Below are positions 6,996 to 57,274 of a stretch of 64,000 nt of DNA, one piece after another. Both the position numbers and the translations under genes were made by a program. The notes below the pieces were generated by a model. It ran no database searches and was not told the DNA's origin. It saw nothing but the letters and a program-made list of their open reading frames with translations. Every line of letters starts with the position of its first letter. The first letter of the stretch is position 1. Source of the stretch: a bacterium (lineage in GTDB: Bacteria; Patescibacteriota; Patescibacteriia; Patescibacteriales; UBA12465); contig DAOMZR010000001.1 of the NCBI GenBank assembly GCA_035400585.1, forward strand, positions 370,643 through 434,642, in the 5' to 3' direction.

Positions 6996-7991
6996 ATGAC
7001 CCCTTACAGAGAAATTTTGAAACGAGCTTGGAAAATCTCTTGGAAAAATAAAATTCTGTGGTTTTTCGGCTTTTTCGCCTCACTTATCAGTTTTGGTGCT
7101 GAATTAAAAATTTTTTCCAGAGCTTTTAGTCAAGAAAGTGGTTTAAAAATTATAAACAATATTGGCTTATTTATTAAAACTGGGATCTTCTCTAAAAATG
7201 CTTTATATAATTTATCATACTTAATTAAAACAGAACCTTGGTCAGCAATCCTTCTGTTTTTAATACTAATAGTGACATTAGCTATATCGCTATTCTTTAT
7301 TTGGCTAGCCACAACCTCGCAAATATCAATTATTGATGCTGTCAAAAAAATAAATAAAGAAAATAAAGAAAAAATAAACATTAAAGATCAAATAAAAAAA
7401 TCCAAAAATAAATTCTGGCCAGTTCTAGGGATGAATGTTTTAATTTGGTTAATTATTAATGGGGTTACTCTTTTAATAAGTTTGCTTTTAGTGGTTATTA
7501 TAATTCAAAACAAATCATCTCTTTTGGCAATTTACGGTTTATTATTTATAATTTTTATTCCGATAATTTTGTTTTTATCTTTCATGATAAAATATGCGAT
7601 TGCTTATATAGTTATAGATGGTAAAAAAACATCTGACGCTTTAAAAAGCGGTTGGGAATTATTTAAAAAAAACTGGCTAATTAGCATTGAAATGTCTATC
7701 ACCTTATTCTTCATAAATATTTTAGCTATGGCTATCATATCTATTGTTGTTTTCCTAATCTTCCTTGTCTTGGCTGGTATAGCCATGACAACAGCTATAT
7801 TTATCTTCTCTTCTCAGGCTTTCTTCTGGGGATTAATATCTATAGCCATACTAATTGCTGTTGTCTTGATTTCTTTGGGTAGTGCTATAATTAATACCTT
7901 CCAAATAAGCGCCTGGACAGAATTGTTTATTAAACTAAAAGAAGAAAAAACAAGCAGTAAACTAGAAAGAATATTCTCAGAACAAAAATAA
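6996..7991 (+). CDS. polytopic membrane protein, unknown function
   Basis: This is a 331-aa product with several long hydrophobic segments. No catalytic motif is recognised. Confidence 0.7.
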   Translation: MTPYREILKRAWKISWKNKILWFFGFFASLISFGAELKIFSRAFSQESGLKIINNIGLFIKTGIFSKNALYNLSYLIKTEPWSAILLFLILIVTLAISLFFIWLATTSQISIIDAVKKINKENKEKINIKDQIKKSKNKFWPVLGMNVLIWLIINGVTLLISLLLVVIIIQNKSSLLAIYGLLFIIFIPIILFLSFMIKYAIAYIVIDGKKTSDALKSGWELFKKNWLISIEMSITLFFINILAMAIISIVVFLIFLVLAGIAMTTAIFIFSSQAFFWGLISIAILIAVVLISLGSAIINTFQISAWTELFIKLKEEKTSSKLERIFSEQK

Positions 7992-8007: not shown

Positions 8008-11000
8008 ATGAGTGGATTTGATTCAATCTCCAGCTTGCTTAATAAAAACAAACAAAGTAATGATGATACTGCGCAAGGAAAGCTGGCGGCTAAACAACAA
8101 GAAATAAAGCTTAAAGAAATAGAAAGACAAACAAAACTCAAAGCTGATGCTTTGGGTCTTTCTTATGTTAATTTATTTGCTTTTCCTATAAGCCCAGAAG
8201 CTATAACCTTAATACCAGAAGAAGAAGCTATTGCCGAAAAAATAATTTGTTTTTATTACGATGGTGAAAATATTCGTTTAGCCACTAGTCGTCCGGAAAA
8301 TCCTCGGGTTAAAGAAATAGAAGAAGAGTTGAACAAAACTTATTTTACAAAAAGTGTTCTTTATTTAATTTCCGACACCAGTCTTGGTCATGGATTAGAG
8401 GTTTATAAAACAATACCAAAAATAAAAAGGGTTACTGGTGGTGTTGAGATTAAAGAAGAAGACTTGGAAAAATTTAAAGCTGATATTGAGAGCTATCAAA
8501 GTTTAAATGAGAAAATAAATGAGGTAAATATTACTGATGTTGTTACTTTGCTTTTAGCAACAGCTCTTAAAGTTGGCTCTAGCGATATACATATTGAAGC
8601 CGAAGAACAAGGAATTGTCATTAGATTAAGGATTGACGGGGTTCTACAAGAAGCGGCTGTAATCGATAAAATAAAATGGAAAAAAATAATTTCTCGCATG
8701 AAGATACTAGCAGCGGTTAAAATTAACATTGAGGACAAACCACAGGATGGAAGATTTTCTATATTTTTAACTGACGACAGGGTTGATGTTAGAGTTTCTT
8801 TTTTACCAACCGCCTTTGGAGAAAGTGTCGTAATGAGGCTTTTGAAATCTAGCTCTGTTGGATTGTCTTTTGATGATCTTGGTTTAATGCCTCAAGCTTA
8901 TGAGATATTAAAAGCTGAAATCGAAAAACCAAACGGTTTAGTCTTAACAACCGGACCAACTGGTAGTGGTAAAACTACAACCTTGTATGCTATTTTAAAC
9001 AAATTAAACCAACCTGGAACAAAAATTATAACCATGGAAGATCCGATAGAGTATCAGCTTAAAGGAATAAACCAAAGCCAGGTAAACCCTAAAAAGGGAT
9101 ATACTTTTGCCAGTGGATTAAGATCAATACTTAGACAAGATCCAGATGTAGTTATGGTTGGTGAAACCAGGGATTTAGAAACAGCCGAAATAGCTGTTCA
9201 AGCTAGCTTGACTGGACACTTAGTACTATCAACTTTACACACTAACGATGCTGCCGGTGTCATTCCGAGATTGATTGATATGGGAATAAAACCCTATTTT
9301 TTGGTTCCATCAATTAACGCTGTTATTGGTCAAAGACTTATAAGAAAATTATGCCCGCATTGTCGAGAAGCTCATCAATTAAATGAAGATGAAGAGTTTC
9401 AACTAAAAAAAATACTTGGGGTTATCTCCCCTAAAGCCGGTCTCGATATTCCGACTACCCTACCAACAATTTATAAATCCGGAAAAGGATGTGAGCATTG
9501 TGGTGGAATTGGTTATAAAGGCAGAGTTGGTATTTATGAAGTTTTTACAATGGACGATAAATTAAAACAACTAACAATAGATAATGCTCCTTCTTTCAAA
9601 ATATTACAACAAGCCATTGAAAACGGCATGGTAACCATGCTCCAAGATGGAGTTTTAAAAGTTCTAAAAGGAATGACTAGTCTTGATGAGGTTTATAGAG
9701 TTATTGGTGTATTTGATTATATTGACGAACTATACGACGTATCAATATCCAAAACGATGGGTAGAGGTATCAAGATTAAAGCTGAAAAACTAGAAGAGGC
9801 TCAATCTTTGTTAAAAAATGTTCCGACCATTAATCAATTAATGAAGGAGGTGCCAACCAAAGAAATAATAAATCTATTAATTTCTCTAGCTGTCCAAAGC
9901 AGTGCTGGCGACTTGCATATTGAACCAACGGAAAATAATATTAAAATTCGTTTCAGAATAGATGGCGTTCTTCACGATATGTTTGAACTACCAAAAGAAA
10001 ACTATTTGCCGTTAATTGGAGAGATGAAAATATTAATGGGAGTAGAAACAAACATTAAAAAAGCTACAATTGATGGTCGTTTTACAATCTTCCTTCCGGA
10101 CTCAAAACTTGATTGTCGTGTCTCAATAATATCAGGAGCTTTTGGAGAAACCATCGTAGTCAGACTTTTAACTGGAGCTGGAGAAGCTTTAGATATCGAA
10201 AAATTAGGCTTATCACAATATGCCCTGCCAGCATTAAAACGATCTATGGTTAAAACAAAAGGAATTATTTTGACGACCGGGCCAACTGGTAGTGGTAAAA
10301 CTACAACTTTATACAGTGTTTTGAAAAAAATTAATACACCCGATGTAAAAATAATTACCGTTGAAGATCCGATTGAGTATCAAATGCCGGGTATTATTCA
10401 AACTCAAATCGATAATGATAGTGGATATACTTTTGCAGCCGCTATGAGATCTTTTTTGCGTCAAAATCCAAACATAATGATGATTGGAGAAATTCGTGAC
10501 CGAGAAACAGCTGAAATATCAATTGAAGCCGCCTTAACCGGACATTTAGTTTTATCAACCATACACACCAACAGTGCGGCTGGCGCAGTCTCTCGTTTTA
10601 TTGGCTTAAATGTTGAAAGACAAATGCTCGCCAATGCCCTGGAATGTTCCATTGGACAAAGATTAGTAAGAAGAATCTGTCCTTATTGTGAAAAAGAAGA
10701 AATTACACCAGACGAAACAAGCATGCAAGAAGTAAAAAAAATACTAGACAGCATTAAAAACCCTAATGTAGTTATACCTAGTCAAATAAAATTCTACAAA
10801 GGAAAAGGTTGCGACAAGTGCAACAACATCGGTTATAAAGGTAGGCTTGGTTTGTATGAATCACTAGAAGTTAACGAAGAGATAAGAAAATTGATAGCCA
10901 CCGAAGGAATAAGTGATTATGAGATAGAACAAAAAGCCATAGAAAATGGAATGATAAATATAATTCAAGACGGCATACTTAAAGCTCTAGATGGTCAAAC

Positions 11001-11034
11001 AACCATTGATGAAGTATTTAGGATAGCCAAATAA
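8008..11034 (+). CDS. pilB: type IV pilus assembly ATPase PilB/GspE, tandem-duplicated (two complete ATPase units in one chain)
   Basis: This is a 1008-aa product. Unit 1 has a GSPII_E N-terminal-like domain, Walker A GPTGSGKTTTLYAIL (about 8953-8976), EDPIEYQL, VVMVGETRD, TGHLVLSTLHTND, and the cysteine pair CPHC...CEHC. Unit 2 starts at about nt 9706 and has GPTGSGKTTTLYSVL (about 10279-10302), EDPIEYQM, IMMIGEIRD, TGHLVLSTIHTNS, and CPYC...CDKC. Confidence 0.9.
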   Translation: MSGFDSISSLLNKNKQSNDDTAQGKLAAKQQEIKLKEIERQTKLKADALGLSYVNLFAFPISPEAITLIPEEEAIAEKIICFYYDGENIRLATSRPENPRVKEIEEELNKTYFTKSVLYLISDTSLGHGLEVYKTIPKIKRVTGGVEIKEEDLEKFKADIESYQSLNEKINEVNITDVVTLLLATALKVGSSDIHIEAEEQGIVIRLRIDGVLQEAAVIDKIKWKKIISRMKILAAVKINIEDKPQDGRFSIFLTDDRVDVRVSFLPTAFGESVVMRLLKSSSVGLSFDDLGLMPQAYEILKAEIEKPNGLVLTTGPTGSGKTTTLYAILNKLNQPGTKIITMEDPIEYQLKGINQSQVNPKKGYTFASGLRSILRQDPDVVMVGETRDLETAEIAVQASLTGHLVLSTLHTNDAAGVIPRLIDMGIKPYFLVPSINAVIGQRLIRKLCPHCREAHQLNEDEEFQLKKILGVISPKAGLDIPTTLPTIYKSGKGCEHCGGIGYKGRVGIYEVFTMDDKLKQLTIDNAPSFKILQQAIENGMVTMLQDGVLKVLKGMTSLDEVYRVIGVFDYIDELYDVSISKTMGRGIKIKAEKLEEAQSLLKNVPTINQLMKEVPTKEIINLLISLAVQSSAGDLHIEPTENNIKIRFRIDGVLHDMFELPKENYLPLIGEMKILMGVETNIKKATIDGRFTIFLPDSKLDCRVSIISGAFGETIVVRLLTGAGEALDIEKLGLSQYALPALKRSMVKTKGIILTTGPTGSGKTTTLYSVLKKINTPDVKIITVEDPIEYQMPGIIQTQIDNDSGYTFAAAMRSFLRQNPNIMMIGEIRDRETAEISIEAALTGHLVLSTIHTNSAAGAVSRFIGLNVERQMLANALECSIGQRLVRRICPYCEKEEITPDETSMQEVKKILDSIKNPNVVIPSQIKFYKGKGCDKCNNIGYKGRLGLYESLEVNEEIRKLIATEGISDYEIEQKAIENGMINIIQDGILKALDGQTTIDEVFRIAK

Positions 11035-11037
11035 AAT

Positions 11038-11616
11038 ATGTTAGATAAAAAATTTGTAGAAAGTCTGAGAAAAAATTATATAGAAAAAAATAGTCAAAGG
11101 AGGCAAATAATTAGTTCTTCGTCTATAATTCTAAATAATTCCAAAAAGGCAATTTTTGCTACTCACAGACAAGATATAAAATTAGCTGAAGAAAGACTAA
11201 AAGAATCCGAAGACATTATAAAAAAAATAGAAAAAAAATTCGGTCTAAACAGATTAAGAGAAGAGGGTTCGTTTTCCGCTTCGATCGAAGAATATGTTGA
11301 AGCCAAGCTTTTTCTTTCTTTTGTAAAAACTAAAAAAATTACCAAAATAAAAGAAACAAAAATTAGCGAAGAAGCCTATATTGGCGGTATTTGTGATTTC
11401 ACGGGCGAATTAATTAGGCTGGCAACCAACGAAGCAATAAATAAAAATTTTGCTGAAATTAAAAAAGTTAAAAATATAATAAATGAAATTCTTAATGAAT
11501 TGGTAGATTTTGATATTGTCGGACATTTAAGAACAAAATATGATCAGGCTAGAGGAAATTTAAAAAAAATAGAACAAATGGACTACGAAATAAGTCTTAA
11601 GAATTATAATAAATAA
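11038..11616 (+). CDS. translin-family-like protein (tentative)
   Basis: This is a 192-aa helical protein. GGICDFTGELIRLATNEAI and the C-terminal LRTKYDQARGNLKKIEQMDYEISL resemble translin/TRAX signature regions as I remember them. This is not verified by search. Confidence 0.45.
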   Translation: MLDKKFVESLRKNYIEKNSQRRQIISSSSIILNNSKKAIFATHRQDIKLAEERLKESEDIIKKIEKKFGLNRLREEGSFSASIEEYVEAKLFLSFVKTKKITKIKETKISEEAYIGGICDFTGELIRLATNEAINKNFAEIKKVKNIINEILNELVDFDIVGHLRTKYDQARGNLKKIEQMDYEISLKNYNK

Positions 11617-12105
11617 ATGAAAATAGCTATTATATCAGATATTCACGACAATTTGGCCAATCTTGGCCTTTTTTTCGAAATGATAAAAACAGAAGAAATA
11701 AAAAAAATTATTTGTTGTGGAGATGTTTGCAATCAAGAAACACTTGTATTTTTAAGTAAAAATTTTAAAAATGAAATATTTTTAGTAAGAGGAAACATGG
11801 AGCTGTATGAAGATAGTGAAATACTAAAATTAGAAAACATCGATTATCTTGGTAGATACGGGACAATAGAGATTGGAGGCCTTAGGGTTGGTGTTTGTCA
11901 TGAACCGATATTCATTAATAATTTATTAGAAAACGATCCGGAATTAAAATTTATTTTTTACGGACATACTCATCGTCCCTGGATATCAATGAGACAAAAA
12001 GCAACTTTAATAAATCCCGGAACCCTTGGTGGAGTGTTTCAAAAAGCTTGTTTTGCAATCTGGGACACAGAAACAACAGATGTTAAATTAAAAATAATTC
12101 AATAA
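11617..12105 (+). CDS. metallophosphoesterase (YfcE/MJ0936 family)
   Basis: This is a 162-aa product carrying the motifs ISDIHDN, GDV, RGNME and GHTH. Confidence 0.8.
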   Translation: MKIAIISDIHDNLANLGLFFEMIKTEEIKKIICCGDVCNQETLVFLSKNFKNEIFLVRGNMELYEDSEILKLENIDYLGRYGTIEIGGLRVGVCHEPIFINNLLENDPELKFIFYGHTHRPWISMRQKATLINPGTLGGVFQKACFAIWDTETTDVKLKIIQ

Positions 12106-22825: not shown

Positions 22826-24040
22826 TTATTTATTTTTTAAATAATTAATTTTAAAAGAATCAACAAAGGATTCTACCAAAAAAGGTATGTCGGAAATTAT
22901 TATTGATTCATCGTTATTAAAAAAACCAGCTATGCTCCAATTATTAGTACCCGTAATTAAAATTTTATCATCAATTATCATGGTGTGCTGATGCAAAAAA
23001 GAATTTAAAATATTTTGTCCCAATTCTTGCATTTCATATTGTCTTTTTTCATCCGTTATTACCTCAACATTATCATAAACCCCGACTTTAAAAATACTTT
23101 TAAAAACTGATCCGTTTTGATTAAGATTTGACTCATCAGTAATCATTGTTATTTTTTTGTCTTTTGGTATTAATAAAATTTCTTTAGCCAAACCTCTATC
23201 AGTCCAAAGCCAAATCATTATTCTAATTTTTTCTTGAGTGTTTTTTGCTAATTCAATCATTCTATTTTTAGCATTATTATATTTATCTCCTGGTGAAAAC
23301 CAAATTTCTATAAAGCCGTTTTTATACTTAATACGCGCAGCAAATGGGTTAACATTTTCAATTGTTTTTCTAGCTCCGTGAATGCCAGAATTTATTCTGT
23401 CAAATTCTTCGCCAAAAATTCTAACAAAATTTTCATCATTAGTTTTAATTAAAAAACTAGGATCATATTTTTCTTGCAAATGGGTAAAATTATAGGAACC
23501 AAAAAACAATGTTCGACTTTCAAGTTGACGATCAATAATAATAAACTTATGGTGCATTAAATATGATCTATTATTTTTCCAAAAAGAATAGGTTATATCT
23601 TTCCTGGTAATAAAATTTTCTATATCAGCAAAAAAAACATCATGAATATCCTTTCCCTTGCTGCAAACCAAAACAACTATTTCAACTCCTCTATCAGCCG
23701 CTTTTTTCAGGGCTTCCTTAATATTAGAATCGTTCATCGCGTAAACGGCTATTTCAATAGTATTAGTGGCGGAATTAATTGATTTTATAACTTCATCAGA
23801 AAAAATATTTTCACCCAGCTTGTCATTAAAATAAACATCAGCCTTAAAATCATAATCAACAGTCAACTCTTCTCTTGGGGCTATCGGAGTTATTTCTTTT
23901 AAATTTTTATTGTCAGAAAAAAAATAAAACAAAGAAAGAAAAAACAAAAAAAGAATTAAGAACAAACTAAAAAAAATTATAATTAAATTCCTTGTATTAT
24001 TTTTATTTTTTTTCTCTAATTTCTTTTGATTGGATTTCAT
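22826..24040 (-). CDS. membrane-anchored PLD-family protein, third gene of the RT cassette
   Basis: This 404-aa product has a basic N-terminus followed by one TM segment (LIIIFFSLFLILFLFFLSLFYFF). The first motif, HHKFIIID...GSYN (about 23531-23554), is canonical HxK(x)4D. The second, HQHTMIIDDKILITGTNN (about 22970-22993), has the lysine position replaced. Its ATG at 24040 overlaps the upstream gene by 38 nt. Confidence 0.8.
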   Translation of the reverse strand: MKSNQKKLEKKNKNNTRNLIIIFFSLFLILFLFFLSLFYFFSDNKNLKEITPIAPREELTVDYDFKADVYFNDKLGENIFSDEVIKSINSATNTIEIAVYAMNDSNIKEALKKAADRGVEIVVLVCSKGKDIHDVFFADIENFITRKDITYSFWKNNRSYLMHHKFIIIDRQLESRTLFFGSYNFTHLQEKYDPSFLIKTNDENFVRIFGEEFDRINSGIHGARKTIENVNPFAARIKYKNGFIEIWFSPGDKYNNAKNRMIELAKNTQEKIRIMIWLWTDRGLAKEILLIPKDKKITMITDESNLNQNGSVFKSIFKVGVYDNVEVITDEKRQYEMQELGQNILNSFLHQHTMIIDDKILITGTNNWSIAGFFNNDESIIISDIPFLVESFVDSFKINYLKNK

Positions 24041-25706
24041 ATTTTTTATAATAACTTAAAATTTGATTATCGTTTTTAGAAAAAACAATTATGCTTGTTT
24101 TATTTAATTCATCGCTGATTAAGCGCAACATTTTATTAATGGGTTCATAGTTTAGATCCAGCCATAAATTATCAATAACTATAACATCCGGCTTAACAAT
24201 TAAACAATGAGCACAATGAGCCGCAAAAGATTTTACAAAATTATTAAAAACAAATTCTAATTTTATATTATAGTTAGCATCCTGGCTTAAATTTTGAGCT
24301 ATCAGATCAAATTTTTGAATCTTTTTTATATTTTTTTCAACTTCCTCCATCGAAATCATCTCCTTGTCTTTTCCCGAAACAAATTCCAATAAAGTTCGCA
24401 CAGATTTAAATAGTGGATCAAAATAATAGGGACGAGGCCGACAACCAGACCAAAAAGAATAATTGAATTTCTGACCATCAATTTTTACTTTCCAGCTCAG
24501 AGGATTGCAAACCTTTAAACCAGAAAAAGCTAAGGCTAAAGATGTTTTTCCGGATAAATTTTCACCTGTAAATAAATATCTATTTCCGCTTTTAAAAACA
24601 AAAGACAAGCGACGATAGTACGCACCTTCTAAAAACAATTTCGTCTTTCTATTGTGAAAGCTTATTTCGTTTCTAACTATTGGCGCCATTTTTGTTAACG
24701 AAATTCTTTTTGGCAAAACTGATAGCACTATTCCTAGTTTAGCTGGGTAAGTATAAAGACCAATAGTTGAAGCCTCATAAAGAGCTCGGGAAATATAGAT
24801 AATAAAAAATATAAGAAATAGATAGTTGAAATTATGTTTAGCAAAATAAGAATTCAAAAATCCTTCATTAAAATTTACAAAAAAATAAATAATTATTACT
24901 AATAAAAAAATAAACTTTCCAGCCAAACGAAACCACAAATCGCGACGAATTCTGAAATAAGAATCAAAATCTACCAAGCGATCAAATTTTTTAATAAAAT
25001 AACCCTCTTGAAAAAATCTTTTTAAAAAAGATTTATCAGAAAAATTGAAACTGATATGTTTTAATATTTGAGAATAAAAAGTAACCTCTCTGGATATATA
25101 ATATCTGGAAATAAAATAAGAAAACAAAATTATAATCAAAGAAAGTACCACAAAAAATAAAGAAGACCACAATAAACTTAAATCAATCAAATGGGCAATA
25201 AAAACAAAACAGGCAAAATAAAAAAACCAACGGATAACTGCAAAAAAAACTTTAGTAACAAAAGAGGAAAGCAGGGGCAAATGATAAGATATTTTGGCTA
25301 TTAAATTAGATTGAGACTCTCCGTTTATAGAAGCCTCCCCTCTGTTTAAATAAAAAGAAACTATTCTTTTTCTAACCTCGTTGCTAAGATAAACTGATAA
25401 AGTTTTTTCCTTTTTTATTGAAAAATATGAAAACAATAGAAAAAGAACGGAAAAAACAATAAACAACAACAAGAGGCTATTATTCGTTGTTTCAAAATTT
25501 AATTTATTGCGACTAATTAATAGCAACAACAACTCTACAATTGTCTGACAAACAATTAGGGTTAAAGCCAAAAAAAATAAAACCCTATTTTTTTTATAAA
25601 ATTTTTTAAAAAAAGAAATGTAAAAACCCAAACCTCTTTCTTGATCAATCGGCAAGGCATTGTTTCTTATTTTTTTTAATTCTGAAATATTTTTATTTTC
25701 GATCAT
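24003..25706 (-). CDS. ABC half-transporter-like protein (multi-TM N-domain plus degenerate nucleotide-binding domain), second gene of the RT cassette
   Basis: In this 567-aa product, roughly the first 330 aa hold about 6 hydrophobic helices. The C-terminal domain has Walker A GENLSGKT (24543-24566). The signature position reads LSQDA instead of LSGGQ. The Walker B position reads VIVIDN (24168-24185), with Asn where the catalytic Glu normally sits. The gene overlaps the RT stop by 14 nt. Confidence 0.75.
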   Translation of the reverse strand: MIENKNISELKKIRNNALPIDQERGLGFYISFFKKFYKKNRVLFFLALTLIVCQTIVELLLLLISRNKLNFETTNNSLLLLFIVFSVLFLLFSYFSIKKEKTLSVYLSNEVRKRIVSFYLNRGEASINGESQSNLIAKISYHLPLLSSFVTKVFFAVIRWFFYFACFVFIAHLIDLSLLWSSLFFVVLSLIIILFSYFISRYYISREVTFYSQILKHISFNFSDKSFLKRFFQEGYFIKKFDRLVDFDSYFRIRRDLWFRLAGKFIFLLVIIIYFFVNFNEGFLNSYFAKHNFNYLFLIFFIIYISRALYEASTIGLYTYPAKLGIVLSVLPKRISLTKMAPIVRNEISFHNRKTKLFLEGAYYRRLSFVFKSGNRYLFTGENLSGKTSLALAFSGLKVCNPLSWKVKIDGQKFNYSFWSGCRPRPYYFDPLFKSVRTLLEFVSGKDKEMISMEEVEKNIKKIQKFDLIAQNLSQDANYNIKLEFVFNNFVKSFAAHCAHCLIVKPDVIVIDNLWLDLNYEPINKMLRLISDELNKTSIIVFSKNDNQILSYYKKYEIQSKEIREKK

Positions 25707-26904
25707 AATGAAATTTTAAGTAAAATTTATACAAGGAAATTATTTTGATCTGGCTTTCGGATAATTTATCAACAAGCAATCTTCTATTTCTGGAATTATA
25801 TTTGCCAAACAAAAATTCAGTTAGAACTTTAAAAAACGATTCGGACAAAAGTTTTATTTGATCAGAGTCATTTATTTGTGGTTTGCTTTTTATAATACCT
25901 TTAAAAACATTATTAAAATTTTTTTGAGGATTCTTCATTATTTTTCTCAAAATAGTCATCTTATAATTTTGACTATAATTTTTGTAAATCAAAATCGATT
26001 GCCAACTTTTTATTATTTTTTTGACAAAATTATCTGGCAAGGATATTTTACCCGCCAAAAAATTATAACCTAAATAAGAAAATTTTTCTTTAGCTTGACC
26101 GAAAAATATTTTATCTAAATTTATTTTGAGTTTCAAATTCGAAACATCATTTAAAAATTCTTCTTTATTTTTTTCTAATTTTTCCTTGTCTGGATCAAGC
26201 ATTATCAAATCATCACCTACTCGTAAATAAAATTGGGCACGAGAAGAAAATTTCTTATCGATATCGTTTAAATAAAAATTGGTTAAAAGACCAAAAATCG
26301 GACAACCAATGACTAGCCCCCTATTTGGTTTTAAAAATTCACCTTGATAGTAAAAACTATTATTAACAAAAACAGATAATAATTTTAAAACGGAATCATC
26401 TTTAATAAATTCTGACAACTTCTCCATCATTAATGTCCGATCGATTTCACCAGAAAAATTACTTAAATCAGCCGTAAAGACATAATCGGTATTGAAAAAT
26501 TTACGATATCTTTTGGCCATTAAATAAGCTGCGTTATAAGGTGATTTTCCTGGACGATAAGAAAAAAGGCGAGACGAAAACTCTTTTTCAAATTCGCCCA
26601 AAAGAACTCGATAAATTGCCTGGGATTTAACTCTCTCCTTAATATTGTAAATAAATATCTCTCTATTTTTTTCTGGATTATGTTTTTTAGGAATATAAAT
26701 ATTAAGGGCCGGATCAATTTCTTTAAATTCTCTCATTTCTTTTTTAATTTGCCTAATTAAATTAAAAACAAACAAATTAAAAAAATTTAAATTTAAACCG
26801 TCCAAGCCCCTGTACCTATTTTCTTTGTTTTCCAAATGAAAATAATCAAAAACCTCTTGATAGGCTTCCCTAATATTCTTAGAAGATGTTATTTTTTTAA
26901 ACAT
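25693..26904 (-). CDS. reverse transcriptase (unclassified; not obviously retron, DGR or group II)
   Basis: RT motifs occur in the expected order: IYIPKKHNPEKNREIFIYNIKERVKSQAIYRVL (motif 1), SYRPGKSPYNAA (2), YVFTADLSNFSGEID (3/A), GLVIGCPIFGLLTNFYLNDID (4/B), YLRVGDDLIML (5/C; VGDD is encoded at 26220-26209), LKLKINLDK (6) and FSYLGYNF (7). A C-terminal region of about 110 aa follows. The track start at 26913 is a TTG codon, so I use the ATG at 26904. Confidence 0.85.
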   Translation of the reverse strand: MFKKITSSKNIREAYQEVFDYFHLENKENRYRGLDGLNLNFFNLFVFNLIRQIKKEMREFKEIDPALNIYIPKKHNPEKNREIFIYNIKERVKSQAIYRVLLGEFEKEFSSRLFSYRPGKSPYNAAYLMAKRYRKFFNTDYVFTADLSNFSGEIDRTLMMEKLSEFIKDDSVLKLLSVFVNNSFYYQGEFLKPNRGLVIGCPIFGLLTNFYLNDIDKKFSSRAQFYLRVGDDLIMLDPDKEKLEKNKEEFLNDVSNLKLKINLDKIFFGQAKEKFSYLGYNFLAGKISLPDNFVKKIIKSWQSILIYKNYSQNYKMTILRKIMKNPQKNFNNVFKGIIKSKPQINDSDQIKLLSESFFKVLTEFLFGKYNSRNRRLLVDKLSESQIKIISLYKFYLKFHYDRK

Positions 26905-26916
26905 TTTAAACAAAAA

Positions 26917-27391: not shown

Positions 27392-28258
27392 ATGAAAAAA
27401 AATAAAAAAATAATTTTCTGGCTATTTTTTTTGTTAATAATTTTTATTGTTTTTTTGAATTATTATTTAAAAATTAGAAATAATAAAAATTTAAATATTT
27501 TCTTTCTGGATTCAGGCCAGGCTGATACAATATTAATAAAAACACCAGAAGAACAAAATATTATTATTGATTTAGGCAGTAAAGATGGACTTAAAGGTGT
27601 TGGTCAGCAAATTTTTTGGTGGGACAGAAAAATAGACATATTAATAATAACCCATCCTCACGATGATCATATCTTGGCCATTCCTCAATTAATAGATAAA
27701 TATAAAATAAATAAAATAATATTTACTGGGATAATATACGATTCACCAATCTATGAAGAAATAATTAAAAAAGCGCAAGATAAAAAAATAAAATTATTAA
27801 TTCCGCAAATCAATCAAAAAATATTATTGGGAAAGAGTTGCGAGTTGGATTTTTTATATCCATTAGAAAGTTTAAAAGATAAAAAAATAGAAAATATTAA
27901 CAATTCTTCCATTGTTAATAGATTGAAATATAAAAACAATTATTTTTTATTCATGGGTGATTCTGAAATTGACATTGAAGAAAAATTATTAGAAAAAAAT
28001 TATGAATTAAAAAGTGATGTTTTAAAAGTTAGCCACCATGGCTCCATTAGTTCTAGTCATCAAGAATTTATAAAAAAAATAAACCCGAAAATTTCAATCA
28101 TCATGGTTGGTCAAAATAATAAATTCAACCATCCAAGTTTAAGAACATTAAATAAATTACAAAAAATCGGCTCTTTGATTTTTAGAACCGATTTAAACGG
28201 AGATATAAATATAACAAGTGATGGTCAATTGATAAAATATAAACTATCCAGCGAATAA
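27392..28258 (+). CDS. ComEC/Rec2-type MBL-fold domain protein with N-terminal TM anchor
   Basis: This is a 288-aa product. The motifs FLDSGQADTILI, ITHPHDDH, LKVSHHGS and FNHPS...RTDLNGDI match the C-terminal metallo-beta-lactamase domain of ComEC. Confidence 0.8.
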   Translation: MKKNKKIIFWLFFLLIIFIVFLNYYLKIRNNKNLNIFFLDSGQADTILIKTPEEQNIIIDLGSKDGLKGVGQQIFWWDRKIDILIITHPHDDHILAIPQLIDKYKINKIIFTGIIYDSPIYEEIIKKAQDKKIKLLIPQINQKILLGKSCELDFLYPLESLKDKKIENINNSSIVNRLKYKNNYFLFMGDSEIDIEEKLLEKNYELKSDVLKVSHHGSISSSHQEFIKKINPKISIIMVGQNNKFNHPSLRTLNKLQKIGSLIFRTDLNGDINITSDGQLIKYKLSSE

Positions 28259-29512
28259 TTTATTGGCTAATAAATTTTTAGCTGTTTCCATACTAATCAT
28301 TCCTCTGTTAGTAAGATCTTTAATGCTTCTTTCAAAGCTAATCATACCTTCGCTAGAATGAGTTTCAATAACACTTCTTATTTGGGCTATTTTTTGTTCC
28401 CTAATAAGATTGGAAACAGCTGAATTATTCAACAAGACTTCTCTCACCGCTACTCGACCGCCATTAACACCAGGAACGAGTATTTGAGAGATTACTGCTG
28501 ATAAAATCAAGGATAACTGTGATTTTATTTGATTTTGCTGATGAGGTGGAAAAATATCAATAATACGATCAATAGTTTGAGAAGCATTGCAAGTATGCAA
28601 AGTAGCTAAAACTAAATGTCCAGTTTCAGCCAAGGTTATAGCCGTAGAAATAGTTTCTAAATCGCGCATTTCCCCAACCATAATAACATTAGGATCTTGT
28701 CTTAAAACATGTCTTAGGCCACTAGCAAAATCGGGCATATCGGTTCCTAATTGTCTTTGGCTAATTATGCTTTTTTTAGGTTTAAATATAAATTCGATTG
28801 GATCTTCAAAGGTGACAATATTACAACTACGAAAATTATTTATATGATCGATCATGGCCGCCAAAGAAGTTGATTTTCCAGAACCAGTTGGACCAGTTAT
28901 CAAAATTAATCCCTGAGTTAATCCTAGGAGACCATAAACTTGTTTGGGCATATCCAACATTTCCATCGATGGCATAACCTCATCAATAATTCTAGCTGTC
29001 ATTTTGATATTGCCCTTCTCAAAAGATAAGTTAGATCTAAATCTATAATTTTCAAATTGATAAGAAAAATCTAAATCCTTTTTTCTATTTAAGCGATCAA
29101 TTTGTTTTTTACTTAAAATATGTTTAATCGCCTTAATCATTTCTTTGTTAGTAACCAAGCTTAAGTCATAAGGCTCTAGAGACGGAGTAAAAGATGAAAT
29201 ATTTTTGGAAATTTCGCTACTAATTAATTCATCATCTTCTGACAAAACAAACCTCTCAACCGAATTTCCCGTATCTTCATAAGACCCTAAAATATTTTTT
29301 TGGTTAGAATTGTTTTCTGAGAGTAAATCTTGTTCTTTGCCAATGTTATTATCAAAAGAATTATCAATCATGTCCAAGTCTGGCATTGATTGAAATTTGT
29401 CGATTGAAATTAAATTACCATCTATTCTTAGTATTGGCCTTAAACCAGAAACTAAGTGAATATCAGAGGCTTTTTGTTCGACGGCAATCTTAAAAATTTG
29501 ATTAATATCCAT
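28244..29512 (-). CDS. pilT: type IV pilus retraction ATPase PilT with N-domain insertion
   Basis: The motifs ASDIHL, GPTGSGKSTSLAAMI, FEDPIEF, VIMVGEMRD and TGHLVLATLHT are present. The track start is a TTG codon, so I use the ATG at 29512 (MDINQIF). A low-complexity insertion of about 70 aa follows IDGNLISID. Confidence 0.88.
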   Translation of the reverse strand: MDINQIFKIAVEQKASDIHLVSGLRPILRIDGNLISIDKFQSMPDLDMIDNSFDNNIGKEQDLLSENNSNQKNILGSYEDTGNSVERFVLSEDDELISSEISKNISSFTPSLEPYDLSLVTNKEMIKAIKHILSKKQIDRLNRKKDLDFSYQFENYRFRSNLSFEKGNIKMTARIIDEVMPSMEMLDMPKQVYGLLGLTQGLILITGPTGSGKSTSLAAMIDHINNFRSCNIVTFEDPIEFIFKPKKSIISQRQLGTDMPDFASGLRHVLRQDPNVIMVGEMRDLETISTAITLAETGHLVLATLHTCNASQTIDRIIDIFPPHQQNQIKSQLSLILSAVISQILVPGVNGGRVAVREVLLNNSAVSNLIREQKIAQIRSVIETHSSEGMISFERSIKDLTNRGMISMETAKNLLANKLFAG

Positions 29513-29520
29513 ATAATTTA

Positions 29521-30213
29521 TTACCAATTTTTTAACTTTAAACCTTTAATAGCTGCATCAACTTGAGCTTCCTGTTTGGAGCCACCAATTCCAACTGAAA
29601 CTAGCTCATCGTCTAAAAACAAACCGACTGTAAATTTTTTGTCATGATCCGGACCTTCTTCTTTTAAAACTTTATAAACTGGTGTTATGCCGGTTTTTTC
29701 TTGAGATGATTCTTGAAATTTCGACTTAGGATCTAAATAAGATTTATTTTCTATAATATCATTTAAGTTAACAATTATTTTTTCAAGAATAAATTTTTTA
29801 GCTGGTTCTATTCCCTGATCAAGATAAATGGCACCGATCAAAGCTTCAATAGCATTGGCCAATATATATTGACGAGCCTTAGAATTTTTATCTTTAGCCT
29901 CACCTCTGGAAAGTAAAATATGTCCTTCAATATCCAAACCATCAGCCACTTGATAAAGCATTTTAGAATTAACTAAACTAGCTCGCCAATTAGTTAGATC
30001 TCCTTCTGGGTTGTTAGGAAAATTAACAAACAAATACTCAGTAATAACAATTTCCAAAACAGCATCTCCCAAAAATTCCAAACGCTCATTATGACCAAAC
30101 GGAAAATTATGATTTTCGTTTAAATAAGATCTGTGGGTTAAAGCTTGTTGTAAAAGATCTTGATTTTTAAAATAAAAACCAATCTTTTTTTCTAAATTCT
30201 TAAAACTAGACAT
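29521..30213 (-). CDS. rnc: ribonuclease III
   Basis: The ERLEFLGDAVL signature and a C-terminal dsRBD are present. I use the ATG at 30213. Confidence 0.9.
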   Translation of the reverse strand: MSSFKNLEKKIGFYFKNQDLLQQALTHRSYLNENHNFPFGHNERLEFLGDAVLEIVITEYLFVNFPNNPEGDLTNWRASLVNSKMLYQVADGLDIEGHILLSRGEAKDKNSKARQYILANAIEALIGAIYLDQGIEPAKKFILEKIIVNLNDIIENKSYLDPKSKFQESSQEKTGITPVYKVLKEEGPDHDKKFTVGLFLDDELVSVGIGGSKQEAQVDAAIKGLKLKNW

Positions 30214-31131: not shown

Positions 31132-32433
31132 CTATCTAACCGGCCTTAAAAGCTTGTTACTAGCAAAAACAACAACTTCGCCATTATAAGTGAAAAATTT
31201 GCCAGTTGTAGCAGTAGGGCTAAAGGTATAAAGGACATCACCATCAATGTTATAAATTCCACCGCTGCCTACAGCATGAAGTTCGTTATCAACAATAGCA
31301 ATTTGACGAATGCCACTGGGAACATTCGATAAGTCCCAGGTATCGTTTTGATTATTATATTTATAAATACGATTATAGTGAGTACAATATAGATCATTAT
31401 TGAAACTATTAATAAATCTATGTTGAGAACCTATAACTTGGGCAACCGGAGTAAAAATTGATGTTACATCATTCTCTCTGTATCTTATTCCATAACCAGG
31501 CAACCATAAACGATTATCAACAACATTGTCATCCAGATAGGAGAGATTAACATAAGTATCCGAGGTAAACAATTGAGCTAGGGTATCAACATTATATATT
31601 TTACCAATGTAAGCAAAAATAATATTTCCGTTCCAACTAATAACTGAGTGTCCAAAACGATTATCGGTGCCAGTCTGAATAGTATTTATTTCCCAAGTAT
31701 TTAAATCTATTTCGGAAATTTTAGTATCTCCTGAAGTAAATAATCTACCTCCTACATATACCAAAGTATGACCAGACGAACCAATGCCACCAACCGCCCC
31801 CAATCTAAGATCGGTAGCGTGAAGAAGACTATATTGTCCGTTGCTATACTTCCAAAGTTGTTTATCGGTATCAATAAAAATTAAATCATTTCCAATCGGA
31901 ACAACATCGACAACGTTTTTCTCAAATTCAAAAAAAACTTCATAATAACTGTAATCTGGAAGAACTGGATTATCGGGCGATAAATAAGACTCACAACTAT
32001 TAGCAACTATGCCACCAGGGGTTAAACATTTTGGACCTTCGGGCAAATTAGAGATTACTTCTCCGGTACAAAAAGATAACGTATAGGTAGATCCATCGAC
32101 TCCTGGGGAATATTGATAAGTGTTGGAAGAATTGAGACATTCACCATCAGCCGGAGTTGGAGCGGCAGGAATATTATACATATAAAGTTCACCAGAATTA
32201 GAGCCTATAGAACCAGAACTCCACTCTCCATCGGTTGGATATCTACCATTTTCGTTAAAAAATAATTCTAAAGCGGTTTGAAGTTGTTTAACATCAGCAA
32301 CTCGCTTAGAATCTCTAGCCCTAGAACGAGCTTGTTGCAAAGCAACAACAGCTAGCGTGGCCAGTATTCCAATAATAGCGATAACTACCAAGAGTTCAAT
32401 TAAAGTAAAGGCTTTTTTGTTAACCCTAACCAT
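31132..32433 (-). CDS. type IV pilin-like protein, shared N-terminal pilin module plus ~300-aa C-terminal domain (possible beta-propeller)
   Basis: The prepilin leader plus hydrophobic helix is [31 protein letters not shown]. The first ~135 aa are homologous to the pilins at 35865 and 54977. The C-terminal part has recurring IYN(V/I)D- and YKYN-like strand motifs. Confidence 0.85.
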   Translation of the reverse strand: MVRVNKKAFTLIELLVVIAIIGILATLAVVALQQARSRARDSKRVADVKQLQTALELFFNENGRYPTDGEWSSGSIGSNSGELYMYNIPAAPTPADGECLNSSNTYQYSPGVDGSTYTLSFCTGEVISNLPEGPKCLTPGGIVANSCESYLSPDNPVLPDYSYYEVFFEFEKNVVDVVPIGNDLIFIDTDKQLWKYSNGQYSLLHATDLRLGAVGGIGSSGHTLVYVGGRLFTSGDTKISEIDLNTWEINTIQTGTDNRFGHSVISWNGNIIFAYIGKIYNVDTLAQLFTSDTYVNLSYLDDNVVDNRLWLPGYGIRYRENDVTSIFTPVAQVIGSQHRFINSFNNDLYCTHYNRIYKYNNQNDTWDLSNVPSGIRQIAIVDNELHAVGSGGIYNIDGDVLYTFSPTATTGKFFTYNGEVVVFASNKLLRPVR

Positions 32434-35864: not shown

Positions 35865-36911
35865 TTATTGAGAAAAACCAACTAGTCTAATCGCTCTAAC
35901 TTTGTGGGAATTGATTTTTAAATCGGTTGGTGCTGGTATAGCATTTGCTTCTTTTACAAAAAAATTTAAAACTTTGTTTTTATAGGACATTGGCGGTTCT
36001 ACGTAGAAAATATTAGCCCCGTTAGCAGGATCTATTGGATCTTCGGTTGATGTCCAATAGTACCCAGATAAACCAGCCCCTTGCAAATTGCTAGACATAA
36101 TATTAATTAACTCACTATATGATGGTAAAAACCAATCATCGTAGCCACCGCCCCTATAATCACTAGCTAACTTAGCGGCCCCACTAGAACCAACGCAGCT
36201 TGGATCATAACTCAAAATATCATTTGTGCTATCAATACCACAATATCCAGAATAATTAAAAGTATCAGTAGTTTCAACACCTGCACAACCCCAAGAAGTT
36301 CCAGAGCTTTGATCCTCTTCAGCTACAACTAAGGCAAAATCTTGCCAATTATTAGTCGGGCAAGTTATAGGATAGCCAGAAGTGTCTCTATAAATAACAA
36401 TACCACCGCCACAACTATCTCCCACCACTGAATCAATTGTACACTCTGGCTCTGTTGCTGGTTGAGATGGCGCCCCGCTAGAAGAAAGTATTATTCCGCC
36501 TGGAGTTAAATATTTTGCACCATCTGGCAAGTCAGCTACTTGTTTGCCAGTACAAAAATCTACAGTATAAGTATCACCATTTACCGAAGGCGTGTAGGTG
36601 TAAGTGTTGGAAGCCGACGTACAATCACCATCAGCTGGAGATGGGGCAGCTGGAATGTTATACATAAAAATTTCTCCACTAGAATCAGAAACAATCTGAC
36701 CAGAGCTCCACTCGCCCTGAGTTGGATAACGACCATTTTCACTAAAAAACAATTCTAAAGCAGTTTGGAGTTGTTTCATGTCAGCCATTCTCTTGCTATC
36801 ACGAGCACGAGAACGAGCTTGTTGCAAGGCAACTACCGCTAAAGTGGCGAGTATTCCAATGATGGCAATAACCACCAAAAGTTCGATCAAAGTAAAGGCT
36901 TTTTTCCTCAT
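35865..36911 (-). CDS. type IV pilin-like protein, shared N-terminal module plus DUF1566 (Lcl C-terminal)-like domain
   Basis: The product begins [33 protein letters not shown]. The C-terminal [14 protein letters not shown] and YYWTSTE resemble the DUF1566 signature (WRLPT..EL, YWSS) as I remember it. Confidence 0.8.
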
Positions 36912-54976: not shown

Positions 54977-57274
54977 TTACTTACACAACCAAACATTTCC
55001 ACCAAATACTACTGCATAAATTTTATTGCCATCCGAAGATAAGGCAACTGATCGCCAATTTCTTGTGCCAGCCAATGTTCTTTCTGTCCAGGTTACGCCA
55101 GAATCAGAAGAGGTATAAATATAACCACCATAAGCAACGGCGGCTAATTTTGTTCCATCAGAAGAGGAAGCGATAGAATTCCAACTTCTTGAGCCAGCGG
55201 AAGTTTGTTCTGTCCAAGTTGCACCAGAATCAGAAGAGATATAAATATAACCACTAGAAACAACCGCTGCTAATTTGGTGCCATCAGAAGAAGAGGCGAC
55301 AGAGGTCCAACTTCTTGATCCAGCGGAAGTTTGTTCTGTCCAAGTTGCACCAGAATCAGAAGAGGTATAAATATAACCACCAAAATTAACTACAGCTACT
55401 AGTTTTGTACCATCAGAAGAGGAAGCGATAGAATTCCAGCTCCTTGATCCAGCAGAAGTTTGTTCTGTCCAAGTAACTCCAGAATCAGAAGAGGTATAAA
55501 TATAACCAGTAGAAACAGTCGCTGCTAGTTTTGTGCCATCAGAAGAAGAGGCGACAGAGGTCCAACTCTTTGAACCAGCCGATGTTTGATTCCAAGTAAT
55601 GCCAGAGTCGGACGAAGTATAAACATGACCTCCCCCAACAACAGCAACCAGTTTGATGCCATCCCAAGAAGATGCAATCGAAAACCAACTAACTAAAGGG
55701 GAAATTTGACCAGTCAAAGTTTCACCAAAATCGGAAGAAGTATAAATATTACCAGCATTACCAACCACTGCAAAAACTTTTTCACCATCAGAAGAAGATG
55801 TGATTGAACGCCAATTTTTAGGACCAAGACCAGAATAATCTTTTTTTACCCAAGTAACACCAGAATCGACTGAAGTATAAATATAATCATTATAGGCAGC
55901 AGCGATTAATTTCGTACCATCGTAAGAAGAAACAATTGATTGCCAGCCCCTTGAACCGGCCGAGGTTCTTTCTGTCCAAGTTACCCCCGAATCAGATGAA
56001 GTATAAATATAACCGCTAATTTCTGAAGTTGCCATTAATTTTGTACCATCAGATGAAGAATAGATTGATGTCCAATATTTTGAACCAGCCGAGGTTCTTT
56101 CTGTCCAGTTTACGCCAGAATCAGAAGAGGTATAAATATAACCAGTATAGGCCACAGCCGCAAGCTTGACACCATCAGAAGAAGAAGATATTGATTTCCA
56201 ATATCTTGCCCCAGCCGAGGTTCTTTCTGTCCAAGTTACACCTGAATCAGATGAAGTATAAATATAACCAGTAGTTCCAGTTCCTGCTACAATCGTGCTA
56301 CAATCCGACGAACAAACGATAGAATACCAACTTCTAGCACCGGATGATGTTTGTTCTACCCAAGTTACACCAGAATCAGAAGAGGTATAAATATAACCAC
56401 CATAAGCAACGGCGGCTAATTTTGTTCCATCAGAAGAGGAAGCGATAGAATTCCAACTTCTTGAGCCAGCGGAAGTTTGTTCTGTCCAAGTTGCACCAGA
56501 ATCAGAAGAAGTATAAATATAACCGCTAGAAACAACCGCTGCTAATTTGGTGCCATCGGAAGAAGAGGAAATTGATCTCCAACTTCTTAAACCAGCCGAG
56601 GTTCTTTCTGCCCAGGTTGCGCCAGAGTCGGTTGAAGTATAAACATAACCGGAACTGACAAAAGCTAAAGCAGCTAATTTAGTTCCATCGGAAGAAGAAG
56701 AAATAACTCTCCAAGCCCTAGGTCCAGAAGCAACCACCTCGGTCCATTGTTTTTCAACACAAGAACCATCAACACAATTATAACCATATTCGCAGGCTGG
56801 ACTACAAACCGCCCCTCCTTCACTAGAAGTATCGCTAACGATTATTATTCCACCAGGAGTCATTTGTTTGACCCCATCTGGTAAATCAGAAACTTGCTTA
56901 CCGGTACAGAAATCTATAGTATAACTAGCTCCATTATCCCTAGGAATATAAACGTAAGTATTAGAAGAATTTGTACAACCACCATCAGCTGGTGTCGAAG
57001 CAGAAGGAATAGTTTGCATAAAAATTATTCCTTCGGTTGAAGAACCTATAAAACCCTGATTCCATTCTTCTTCTGTGGGATATCTACCATATTCGTTAGC
57101 AAATAGCTCCAAAGCAGTGTGAAGTTGCTTCATGTCAGCCATTCTTTTAGAATCTCTAGCGTTTTGTCTTGCTTGTTGCAAAGCAACAACAGCCAAAGTT
57201 GCTAAAATACCAATAATGGCAACAACTACCAATAATTCAACCAAGGTAAAAGCTTTTTTTCTTAGCTTAAACAT
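54977..57274 (-). CDS. type IV pilin-like protein, shared N-terminal module plus 14 BNR/Asp-box repeat blades
   Basis: The product begins [36 protein letters not shown]. It then has 14 units of about 42 aa, each with the pattern [21 protein letters not shown](A/V)TW. The SxDxGxTW element is the BNR/Asp-box. Confidence 0.88.
55098..55237. repeat. 140-nt perfect intragenic direct repeat, copy A
   Basis: This copy is identical to 56370-56509 by manual comparison. The offset is 1272 nt, so it is in frame (424 codons). Similarity continues with a few mismatches for about 80 more nt. Confidence 0.85.
56370..56509. repeat. 140-nt perfect intragenic direct repeat, copy B
   Basis: See copy A. Confidence 0.85.

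Follow-up and report, generated by a model that had tools for sequence, protein, structure and literature searches.

The open reading frame (ORF) at positions 8008-11034 (+ strand) of a 64,000-nucleotide stretch of contig DAOMZR010000001.1 (assembly GCA_035400585.1; the whole stretch is referred to here as the window) encodes a 1008-residue protein in which two complete PilB/GspE-type ATPase cores follow one another behind a single N-terminal domain. The reading frame contains no internal stop in the translation of the window (~31% G+C), and the conserved residues of both cores make it almost certain that the gene product is a genuine, active two-core ATPase. The best overall explanation, to which we assign a probability of about 0.6, is that the protein is an ancient two-core motor of the PilB/GspE clade that powers pilus extension and works as a ring of three chains. 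Within this explanation, the role as a pilus extension motor is probable, judging from gene content and position; the closure of three chains into one six-core ring is more tentative and is proposed, by analogy, at slightly less than even odds. The parts of the gene are as follows.

8008 to 11034, + strand: tandem-core PilB/GspE-family ATPase gene (N1, core A, connector, core B), a single ORF with T2SSE matched in two stretches
8071 to 8412, + strand: N1 domain, residues ~22-135, T2SSE_N/MshEN-like, single copy, placed by a sub-cut-off MshEN match, the TIGR02538 alignment and the AlphaFold2 model
8440 to 9705, + strand: core A, residues 145-566, an N2 domain and a catalytic C-terminal domain, canonical in sequence (96/96 canonical columns)
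8956 to 8981, + strand: Walker A coding DNA of core A, exact 26-nt match
9706 to 9765, + strand: connector, residues 567-586, GxFDY(I/V)(D/E)ELY...GRG, with a predicted helix at 570-583, delimited by column identity and the AlphaFold2 model
9766 to 11031, + strand: core B, residues 587-1008, a second N2 and catalytic domain, motif-complete but divergent (84/96 canonical columns)
10282 to 10307, + strand: Walker A coding DNA of core B, exact 26-nt match, 1326 nt downstream of the core A copy

When residues 1-575 were compared with residues 576-1008 by BLASTP, residues 145-565 aligned to 587-1006 with 45% identity and 69% similarity (E 1e-134). Walker A (GPTGSGKTT) occurs at residues 316 and 758, the Asp box at 343 and 785, Walker B with the catalytic Glu at 381 and 823, the His box (TGH) at 402 and 844, and the CxxC pairs at 449/495 in core A and 891/935 in core B. 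The spacing between equivalent motifs is 442 residues throughout, except for the second CxxC, where it is 440. The original prediction, made from the sequence of the window, had described one chain with two full sets of Walker A, Asp box, Walker B, His box and tetracysteine motifs and an N-terminal domain in the first unit only. Both descriptions hold: each motif is found twice, the MshEN-type signal is found only at residues 49-103, and N1 precedes core A, core B having none of its own.

The same prediction had noted nearly identical Walker A DNA in two otherwise diverged units and had taken the fusion to be old. The identity is in fact exact: the 26-nt string occurs in two copies, at 8956 and 10282, with none expected by chance. 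Overall, the DNA of cores A and B is only 56.5% identical and synonymous sites are saturated (proportion of synonymous differences, pS, 0.72), which makes the duplication an old one. Further, the same codon is used at only 98 of the 192 residues that are identical between the cores. The shared Walker A DNA is explained by the identical peptide together with codon bias, not by recent conversion. Recent duplication or gene conversion, which the identical string might have suggested, is excluded by the same three figures.

A homologue search covering 5.8 billion proteins clustered at 90% identity returned 120 clusters, of which 118 are 1003-1012 residues long, with near-full coverage and 65-100% identity; two clusters fall short of this length, at 986 and 910 residues. 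The source assemblies are from NCBI, JGI, ENA and Logan, and the labels read Falkowbacteria, Parcubacteria or Patescibacteria. The identical protein (P0001) occurs in another assembly, and orthologues with 91% and 81% identity come from other samples and assemblers. The 81% orthologue, from Falkowbacteria HGW-1, lies on 568-kb and 567-kb contigs from two sources, in the gene order of the window: arginyl-tRNA synthetase, membrane protein, tandem ATPase, translin, metallophosphoesterase, inositol monophosphatase, patatin, UvrA and phospholipase D (PLD). An alignment of the core junction was also scanned against one genome per GTDB species, and the best 80 of the 459 stretches encoding relatives were taken as loci. 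All 80 span the entire junction between the cores; 75 carry an intact ORF of 1003-1015 residues, four are cut by contig ends and one is broken solely by a run of 29 Ns. Complete genomes are among the carriers of the gene, for example CP066698.1 and OW818634.1. These orthologues, the independent assemblies and the conserved synteny leave no room for a missed stop or frameshift that would yield two genes. The two-core gene is real and not an assembly artefact, as had been predicted, and its architecture has passed by vertical descent through a large Falkowbacteria/Parcubacteria lineage belonging to the candidate phyla radiation (CPR). Of the GTDB records with the CPR-type gene, about one-third bear the title 'uncultured Gammaproteobacteria bacterium', a single record that of 'Bacillota' and another that of 'Saccharimonadales'; since the gene and its Falkowbacteria-like synteny are conserved, such titles seem to be placeholders or erroneous taxonomy.

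Catalytic residues were mapped by alignment to PilB of G. metallireducens, with roles taken from McCallum and colleagues (McCallum et al., 2017; PMC5424180). Each has a counterpart in both cores.

Walker A Lys: K322 in core A, K764 in core B
Mg-binding Glu (E357 in G. metallireducens PilB): E348 in core A, E790 in core B
Catalytic Glu: E386 in core A, E828 in core B
Arginine finger R271: R262 in core A, R704 in core B
Arginine finger R286: R277 in core A, R719 in core B
R257 of G. metallireducens PilB: R249 in core A, R691 in core B
T411 of G. metallireducens PilB: T402 in core A, T844 in core B
His box H413: H404 in core A, H846 in core B
His box H420: H411 in core A, H853 in core B
R455 of G. 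metallireducens PilB: R446 in core A, R888 in core B
Pore loop D398 and E400: D389 and E391 in core A, D831 and E833 in core B
Tetracysteine (Cys4) site: 449/452/495/498 in core A, 891/894/935/938 in core B

The set reported as fully conserved by McCallum and colleagues (Walker A, Asp-box Glu, catalytic Glu, His and two arginine fingers) is complete in both cores. In 76/76 species, both cores retain Walker A, the Asp box, the Walker B Glu, the His box, the arginines and Cys4. They are also kept in 12/12 clusters of the old lineage described below, with the exception of Cys4, which is lost in core B of the deep cluster P0131. In a 59-sequence family alignment, little or no variation is seen at T402/T844, R446/R888 and the pore-loop residues. 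A catalytically dead half is thereby excluded for the old lineage, in line with the original prediction; it is true of the first core of an unrelated tandem protein, P0136.

Among 119 close homologues, mean column identity in the N2 and catalytic domains is 0.80 and 0.85 for core A and 0.71 and 0.77 for core B. The 20-residue connector reaches 0.85, equal to the catalytic domain, and N1 is lowest at 0.66. A connector signature, Y-I/V-E-x-L-Y, is present in most of the 12 old-lineage clusters, two of which do not have the Tyr, and is absent from three independent tandems. The ratio of nonsynonymous to synonymous substitution rates (dN/dS), a rough estimate from two orthologues of ~90% identity with dS above 1, is 0.035-0.039 for core A and 0.027-0.036 for core B; dN itself is 0.077-0.082 in core B against 0.053 in core A. 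Walker A is more invariant in core B than in core A across the 76 species. These values indicate strong purifying selection on both cores.

The two cores are not equivalent. When 96 canonical columns were defined by conservation of at least 85% in 125 single-core PilB representatives, core A retained 96/96 and core B 84/96, and most of the 12 departures of core B are fixed alternatives. In the N2 domain, a conserved Arg (R230 in core A) is replaced by E672 in core B; it is lost in all old-lineage clusters and retained in the three young tandems. Other departures include Ser to Gly in the SDIH motif (residue 634), Gln of QDGR to a hydrophobic residue (688; other old-lineage clusters change QDGR to QEGR instead), Pro to Ser (709), Gly-Leu to Ala-Met (A812/M813), RQDPD to RQNPN (N820) and HTN to HAN (A854), the last adjoining the gamma-phosphate-sensing His. 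Such changes, fixed within an otherwise constrained sequence, point to specialisation of core B under constraint and not to decay. The functional asymmetry that had been predicted between the units accordingly finds support at the level of sequence, in a canonical core A and a core B with lineage-fixed departures.

Sequence and fold comparisons agree on the family. Pfam T2SSE (PF00437) matches with 766 bits, above its gathering score, in two stretches (residues 174-564 and the second core), and each core alone matches PilB, GspE and PilT profiles at E <1e-47. On these matches, the protein can be placed in the PilT/VirB11-like superfamily, and its Cys4 site, probable N1 domain and best matches indicate the PilB/GspE clade. 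The MshEN match falls just short of its cut-off (22.8 against 23.1 bits); in the homologue P0133 it exceeds it (28.5 bits). The TIGR02538 PilB profile aligns from residue 26. With this PilB equivalog model (cut-off 675.65 bits), the whole chain scores 877.8, core A with N1 488.2 and core B 399.0; with the GspE equivalog TIGR02533 (cut-off 630.25 bits), the corresponding scores are 933.5 for the whole chain, 505.6 for core A and 437.0 for core B. The whole chain passes both cut-offs because the scores of two cores are summed.

An AlphaFold2 model built on the 59-sequence alignment has a mean predicted local distance difference test (pLDDT) of 80.7 and a predicted template modelling score (pTM) of 0.46. 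N1 and both core folds are predicted confidently and their relative arrangement is not; residues 22-135 form a folded alpha/beta domain, and the connector helix at 570-583 has low to medium confidence. Foldseek against the PDB matched one core at a time, with template modelling scores of 0.8-0.93 when normalised to the target and ~0.36 when normalised to the query; the targets were PilB, PilF and GspE chains with 41-44% identity to each core. All solved members of the PilB/GspE group have one core per chain, an architecture from which the present protein departs with two, and neither the sequence search nor the fold search found a two-core chain in the PDB.

The neighbours of the gene and the pilus-related genes of the window are listed below.

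6996 to 7991, + strand: polytopic membrane protein, 331 residues, conserved neighbour; sub-threshold DUF7544, no NCBIfam match
11038 to 11616, + strand: translin-like gene (Pfam and NCBIfam)
11617 to 12105, + strand: YfcE-type phosphodiesterase gene (Pfam and NCBIfam)
28244 to 29527, - strand: PilT-family retraction ATPase, 426 residues (TIGR01420 pilT_fam, 385.9 bits, cut-off 319.1)
31132 to 32433, - strand: large type IV pilin-like protein, 433 residues, with a prepilin N-methylation motif (Pfam N_methyl, TIGR02532)
35865 to 36911, - strand: pilin-like gene, 348 residues, with a prepilin N-methylation motif
54977 to 57274, - strand: pilin-like gene, 765 residues, with a prepilin N-methylation motif and BNR/Asp-box repeats

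A polytopic membrane protein of ~330 residues lies directly upstream on the same strand in 75/75 species loci. Translin is the next gene downstream in 71/75 loci and lies within three genes in 73/75, and a YfcE-like gene is second downstream in 67/75 and present in 70/75. In the window, the intergenic gaps are 16 nt (membrane protein to ATPase), 3 nt (ATPase to translin) and 0 nt (translin to YfcE). Neither of the two downstream genes is known to be linked to pili in function. Promoter-like matches around the gene were within the range of shuffled sequences; terminator-like matches were somewhat above the shuffles, none lying between genes on the + strand. The upstream membrane protein is a possible lineage-specific partner. 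Its identification as a divergent PilC was considered and rejected, given the absence of a T2SSF signal, the sub-threshold DUF7544 match as its only hit and its absence beside deep-clade tandems. Twelve deep-clade loci, obtained from a metagenome scan with a 4-sequence junction alignment, have other neighbours, namely housekeeping genes (DHH, RuvB, RuvC, M16 peptidase and penicillin-binding protein), and there the membrane protein does not adjoin the tandem gene. No other T2SSE gene was found within 10 kb of the tandem gene in the close-species loci.

The case for pilus extension is indirect. The PilT-family ATPase is evidence of a type IV pilus system in the genome; it and the three pilin-like genes lie 17-46 kb from the tandem gene, the pilin-like genes being scattered and none of them beside an ATPase gene. 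Neither pilC nor pilM was found within the 64-kb window. A TsaE-DHH-pilB arrangement is shared by a single-core pilB (P0139) and a tandem gene (P0124), and TsaE also flanks the tandem P0123, which suggests that the tandem gene occupies the ordinary, operon-less pilB locus of the lineage. In CPR bacteria, type IV pili are prevalent, and the secretin PilQ and a Gram-negative envelope have been reported lacking (PMC6744442). The extension role is proposed because of this reported envelope, the prevalence of the pili, the PilT and pilin genes of the window and the positional orthology. The name PilB given in the original prediction is therefore one step beyond the clade assignment: neither core on its own reaches the curated cut-offs for PilB or GspE, and in none of the loci does a pilus gene stand next to it.

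The proposed mechanism starts from an ancient in-frame duplication of the N2 and catalytic module, which has placed two complete cores behind a single N1. Three chains would then close, as the original prediction had suggested, into a single ring of six cores, canonical A and specialised B in alternation, with only three N1 domains and a built-in three-fold symmetry. Hydrolysis of ATP by both cores would power the platform protein and the polymerisation of pilin, just as in an ordinary PilB. PilT-family hexamers have been described in a three-fold (C3) conformation with alternating open and closed interfaces (PDB 6ojy and 6ok2; PMC6858323). Two repeats times three chains on either side of the interface between motor and platform would be plausible, because the platform protein is itself an internal duplication (PMC6668835) and PulF is reported as trimeric (PMC10790770).

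Several observations weigh against this explanation. Most known tandem P-loop ring ATPases, such as type II AAA+ proteins and KaiC, stack two rings. The single-chain AlphaFold2 model offers no confident arrangement of the domains relative to one another, and neither core alone reaches the PilB or GspE equivalog cut-off. No pilus gene lies within 10 kb of the tandem gene in the 75 close and 12 deep loci, and the gene never stands beside pilC, pilM or pilins. Finally, PilB has been proposed to work by a C2 rotary mechanism in which opposite subunits act as pairs (McCallum et al., 2017; PMC5424180), and strict C2 pairing in an (AB)3 ring would join one A core with one B core.

Foremost among the alternatives, though less likely than the single ring, is an assembly of six chains in two stacked hexameric rings, with A next to the membrane machinery, B below it and twelve cores per motor. 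Core B follows directly on the C-terminus of core A through a short conserved connector, and tandem ring ATPases elsewhere (p97/NSF/ClpB and KaiC) generally stack. Six N1 domains would, in addition, preserve the normal six-fold contact with PilM/GspL-type partners, and GspE tolerates a ring-forming protein fused to its C-terminus (GspE-Hcp1; PDB 4ksr and 4kss). However, no stacked PilT-family assembly was found among solved structures. Core B also keeps the pore-loop acids and every inter-subunit arginine, which fits either arrangement but provides no reason to assume a distal ring.

A second alternative would reduce core B to a pseudo-enzyme, regulatory or only weakly active, whose main part is to scaffold or gate core A, so that only three of six sites turn over ATP efficiently. 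The fixed changes at 12/96 canonical columns speak for it, including the loss of the N2-domain Arg (R230 to E672) and of the Gln of QDGR, the change of the RQDPD Asp to Asn and that of HTN to HAN, as does the faster amino acid evolution of core B; moreover, P0136 has one clearly dead core, so that live/dead pairs do evolve in the family. Yet the Walker A Lys, Mg-binding Glu, catalytic Glu, both His and both arginine fingers of core B are invariant in 76/76 species, its Walker A varies even less than the one in core A, and its dN/dS is equally low. A pseudo-enzyme is, on balance, improbable.

It is more doubtful still that the tandem ATPase, instead of extending pili, powers a different membrane process together with the membrane protein encoded upstream. 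The constant adjacency of the two genes in 75/75 species, with a gap of 16 nt here, would be explained in this way, as would the absence of pilus genes within 10 kb in any locus and the low equivalog scores of the separate cores. Against this, the adjacency is missing in the deeper tandem clades, where the neighbours are housekeeping genes, and synteny is generally high in the lineage, aminoacyl-tRNA synthetases being conserved neighbours too. The related single-core pilB, which shares the TsaE-DHH locus, is just as much an orphan; the probable N1 domain, the Cys4 site and the closest structures all point to PilB/GspE; and type IVa pilus genes are in any case usually spread across several loci (PMC6668835).

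The two-core layout of the pilus extension motor proposed here is rare overall, widespread in one CPR lineage and apparently recurrent. A HMMER search over 1.84 billion representatives at 50% identity (E <=1e-30) returned 16,318 proteins, 14 of them with two full cores; the cluster of the query itself brings the number of tandem clusters to 15. The remaining long matches owe their length to long N-terminal regions or low-complexity C-terminal tails. In a neighbour-joining tree (100 bootstraps) of the separated cores and 60 single-core representatives, 12 tandem clusters form one old lineage: their core-B sequences make up one clade (66% support), and their core-A sequences group among ordinary single-core CPR PilBs. 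The subclades {query, P0121, P0122}, {P0128, P0130, P0132} and {P0125, P0129, P0133} appear in the core-A and core-B parts of the tree alike, from which it follows that the fusion has been inherited as a unit.

In P0123, P0127 and P0136, by comparison, the two cores are each other's closest relatives (100% bootstrap; 72%, 54% and 44% identity, respectively) and the connectors are unrelated. These three appear to be independent duplications, a reading to be taken with caution as each is a one-member cluster. P0123 (L117, 3226-6213) and P0127 (L118, 8001-10985) are CPR-type tandem PilBs at housekeeping loci (TsaE/PolA and PolX/RuvB, respectively); both, on one contig each, appear to be younger than the duplication of the old lineage. 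P0136 (L119, 8001-11144; L120, 3275-6418) is a 1047-residue protein with a T2SSF domain and two T2SSE cores, encoded on a non-CPR contig of 62% G+C beside ECF sigma/anti-sigma, sulfatase and MoxR/BatA genes and present in two independent assemblies. In its first core, the Walker A Lys (GSGTTT) and the Mg-binding Glu (EDPVQ) are gone; the second core is intact.

An assembly or sequencing artefact, in which two adjacent pilB genes were joined by a missed stop or frameshift or a repeat was collapsed or expanded, could be entertained for P0123, P0127 and P0136 as one-member clusters (the first two on one contig each, P0136 on two), but for the present gene its probability is close to nil, given intact 1003-1015-residue ORFs in 75 different species, the identical protein in a second assembly, a conserved connector and cores whose DNA identity of 56.5% makes repeat collapse implausible.

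Two further readings were considered and rejected. A fusion with a free-living paralogue of core-B type would require such a protein, and no robust stand-alone example was found, the tips within the B clade being contig-end fragments and two unstable single-core sequences. Similarly, single-core PilBs of 700-820 residues are not decayed tandems, their extra 150-260 C-terminal residues being unrelated low-complexity tails. Six CPR-like single-core PilBs of 711-821 residues (P0150, P0168, P0171, P0174, P0178 and P0197) are of this kind; their tails, 150-260 residues long, are of low complexity, charged or coiled-coil-like and unrelated to a second core.

No two-core PilB/GspE was described in the full-text literature searched, a coverage that leaves subscription-only papers aside. 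A survey of the type IV filament superfamily discusses internal duplication for the platform protein only (PMC6668835), and no such ATPase is described in a 2024 review of PilB (PMC11656802) or in a study of CPR protein families (PMC6744442). The two-core PilB layout has thus neither been described previously in the literature searched nor been solved in the PDB.

If the four origins (the old CPR lineage, two younger CPR duplications and the non-CPR T2SSF fusion with a dead core) are taken together, a broader proposal can be made, which we regard as speculative and hold at roughly one chance in three. The tandem protein would be a natural covalent dimer, three chains of which form a hard-wired C3 A-B-A-B-A-B ring matching a trimeric, duplicated platform; the layout would have evolved at least three to four times, and neighbouring pairs, not single subunits, would be the functional unit of PilB/GspE motors generally.

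Among known systems, the closest is PilB (G. metallireducens 5TSG/5TSH/6OLJ, M. xanthus 3JC8, T. thermophilus PilF 5IT5/5OIU), with which the protein shares a probable N1 domain, N2 and catalytic domains, Walker A, the Asp box, an atypical Walker B, the His box, two arginine fingers and the Cys4 zinc site. PilBs solved or described so far have one core per chain and form homohexamers, whereas here there are two cores per chain and one N1 for every two cores, the second core carries lineage-fixed departures and each core scores below the TIGR02538 cut-off. GspE/EpsE (Vibrio 1P9R, 4KSR/4KSS and 4PHT) has the same motifs, the Cys4 site and the same architecture of N2/C-terminal domain packing units, and TIGR02533 gives the best single-profile score; however, the per-core scores are below its cut-off, no type II secretion genes were seen, and GspE has no tandem layout.

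The PilF protein of T. thermophilus contains repeated GSPII N-domains. Both it (6F8L, a 913-residue chain) and the present protein are unusually long for the PilB family, but the ~900 residues of PilF reflect a long N-terminal region before one core, its chain aligning to the present protein over residues 382-884 only, whereas the extra length here is a second full core.

Two homologous P-loop modules per chain, often one canonical and one specialised, are found in type II AAA+ proteins (p97/NSF/ClpB) and in KaiC. These are other ATPase families and form stacked double rings; we know of no such arrangement described for PilT/VirB11-like ATPases. A parallel within the same machine is offered by the platform protein PilC/GspF, a core component that also arose by ancient internal duplication (two T2SSF domains) and whose gene was later split in two in Tad systems (PMC6668835). 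It is, however, a different protein with a different fold, and a parallel between two repeats and three chains on either side would be our own extrapolation. P0136, which is uncharacterised, also has tandem PilB/GspE-type cores that are mutually closest (100% bootstrap), but it has T2SSF in place of N1, a dead first core, a different connector and a different phylum-level context.

PilB, GspE and PilT motors have been studied as homohexamers, and their two- or three-fold symmetry and the roles of neighbouring subunits are debated from crystal and cryo-electron microscopy conformations (PMC5424180, PMC6858323). The tandem motor is a natural test of how subunits are used. A fused two-core chain, which has persisted over a very long time in hundreds of species, locks neighbouring cores into one register, and each core position can be mutated separately in it, which is impossible in a homohexamer. 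It would also reveal which canonical residues are dispensable at every second position of a ring. Type IV pili are regarded as central to the way CPR bacteria live as episymbionts (PMC6744442). A lineage-specific motor provides a concrete handle on this pilus machinery, and the two-core gene can serve as a sequence marker for a large Falkowbacteria/Parcubacteria clade. The database label 'GspE/PulE family protein' hides the two-core architecture, and summed profile scores that pass equivalog cut-offs are a general annotation pitfall for tandem proteins.

Other features of the window include rRNA genes on the - strand, ordered along transcription as 23S (22439-19427), 5S (19374-19260) and 16S (19064-17504), against the usual 16S-23S-5S. 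Near them lies a reverse transcriptase gene (25693-26913, - strand) that matches the PADLOC generic reverse transcriptase profile and UG26-like profiles of defence-associated reverse transcriptases. It is overlapped by a 567-residue ORF without a family match (24003-25706, - strand), and a PLD-like nuclease gene (22826-24040, - strand) shows a weak DrmC-like match; the region 22826-26913 (- strand) could be a defence-type reverse transcriptase cluster. Finally, a 519-residue ORF at 61106-62665 (- strand) is an odd fusion of a glycosyltransferase family 4 domain (MraY/WecA-like, residues 77-235) with a C-terminal epoxyqueuosine reductase QueH domain (residues 345-518).

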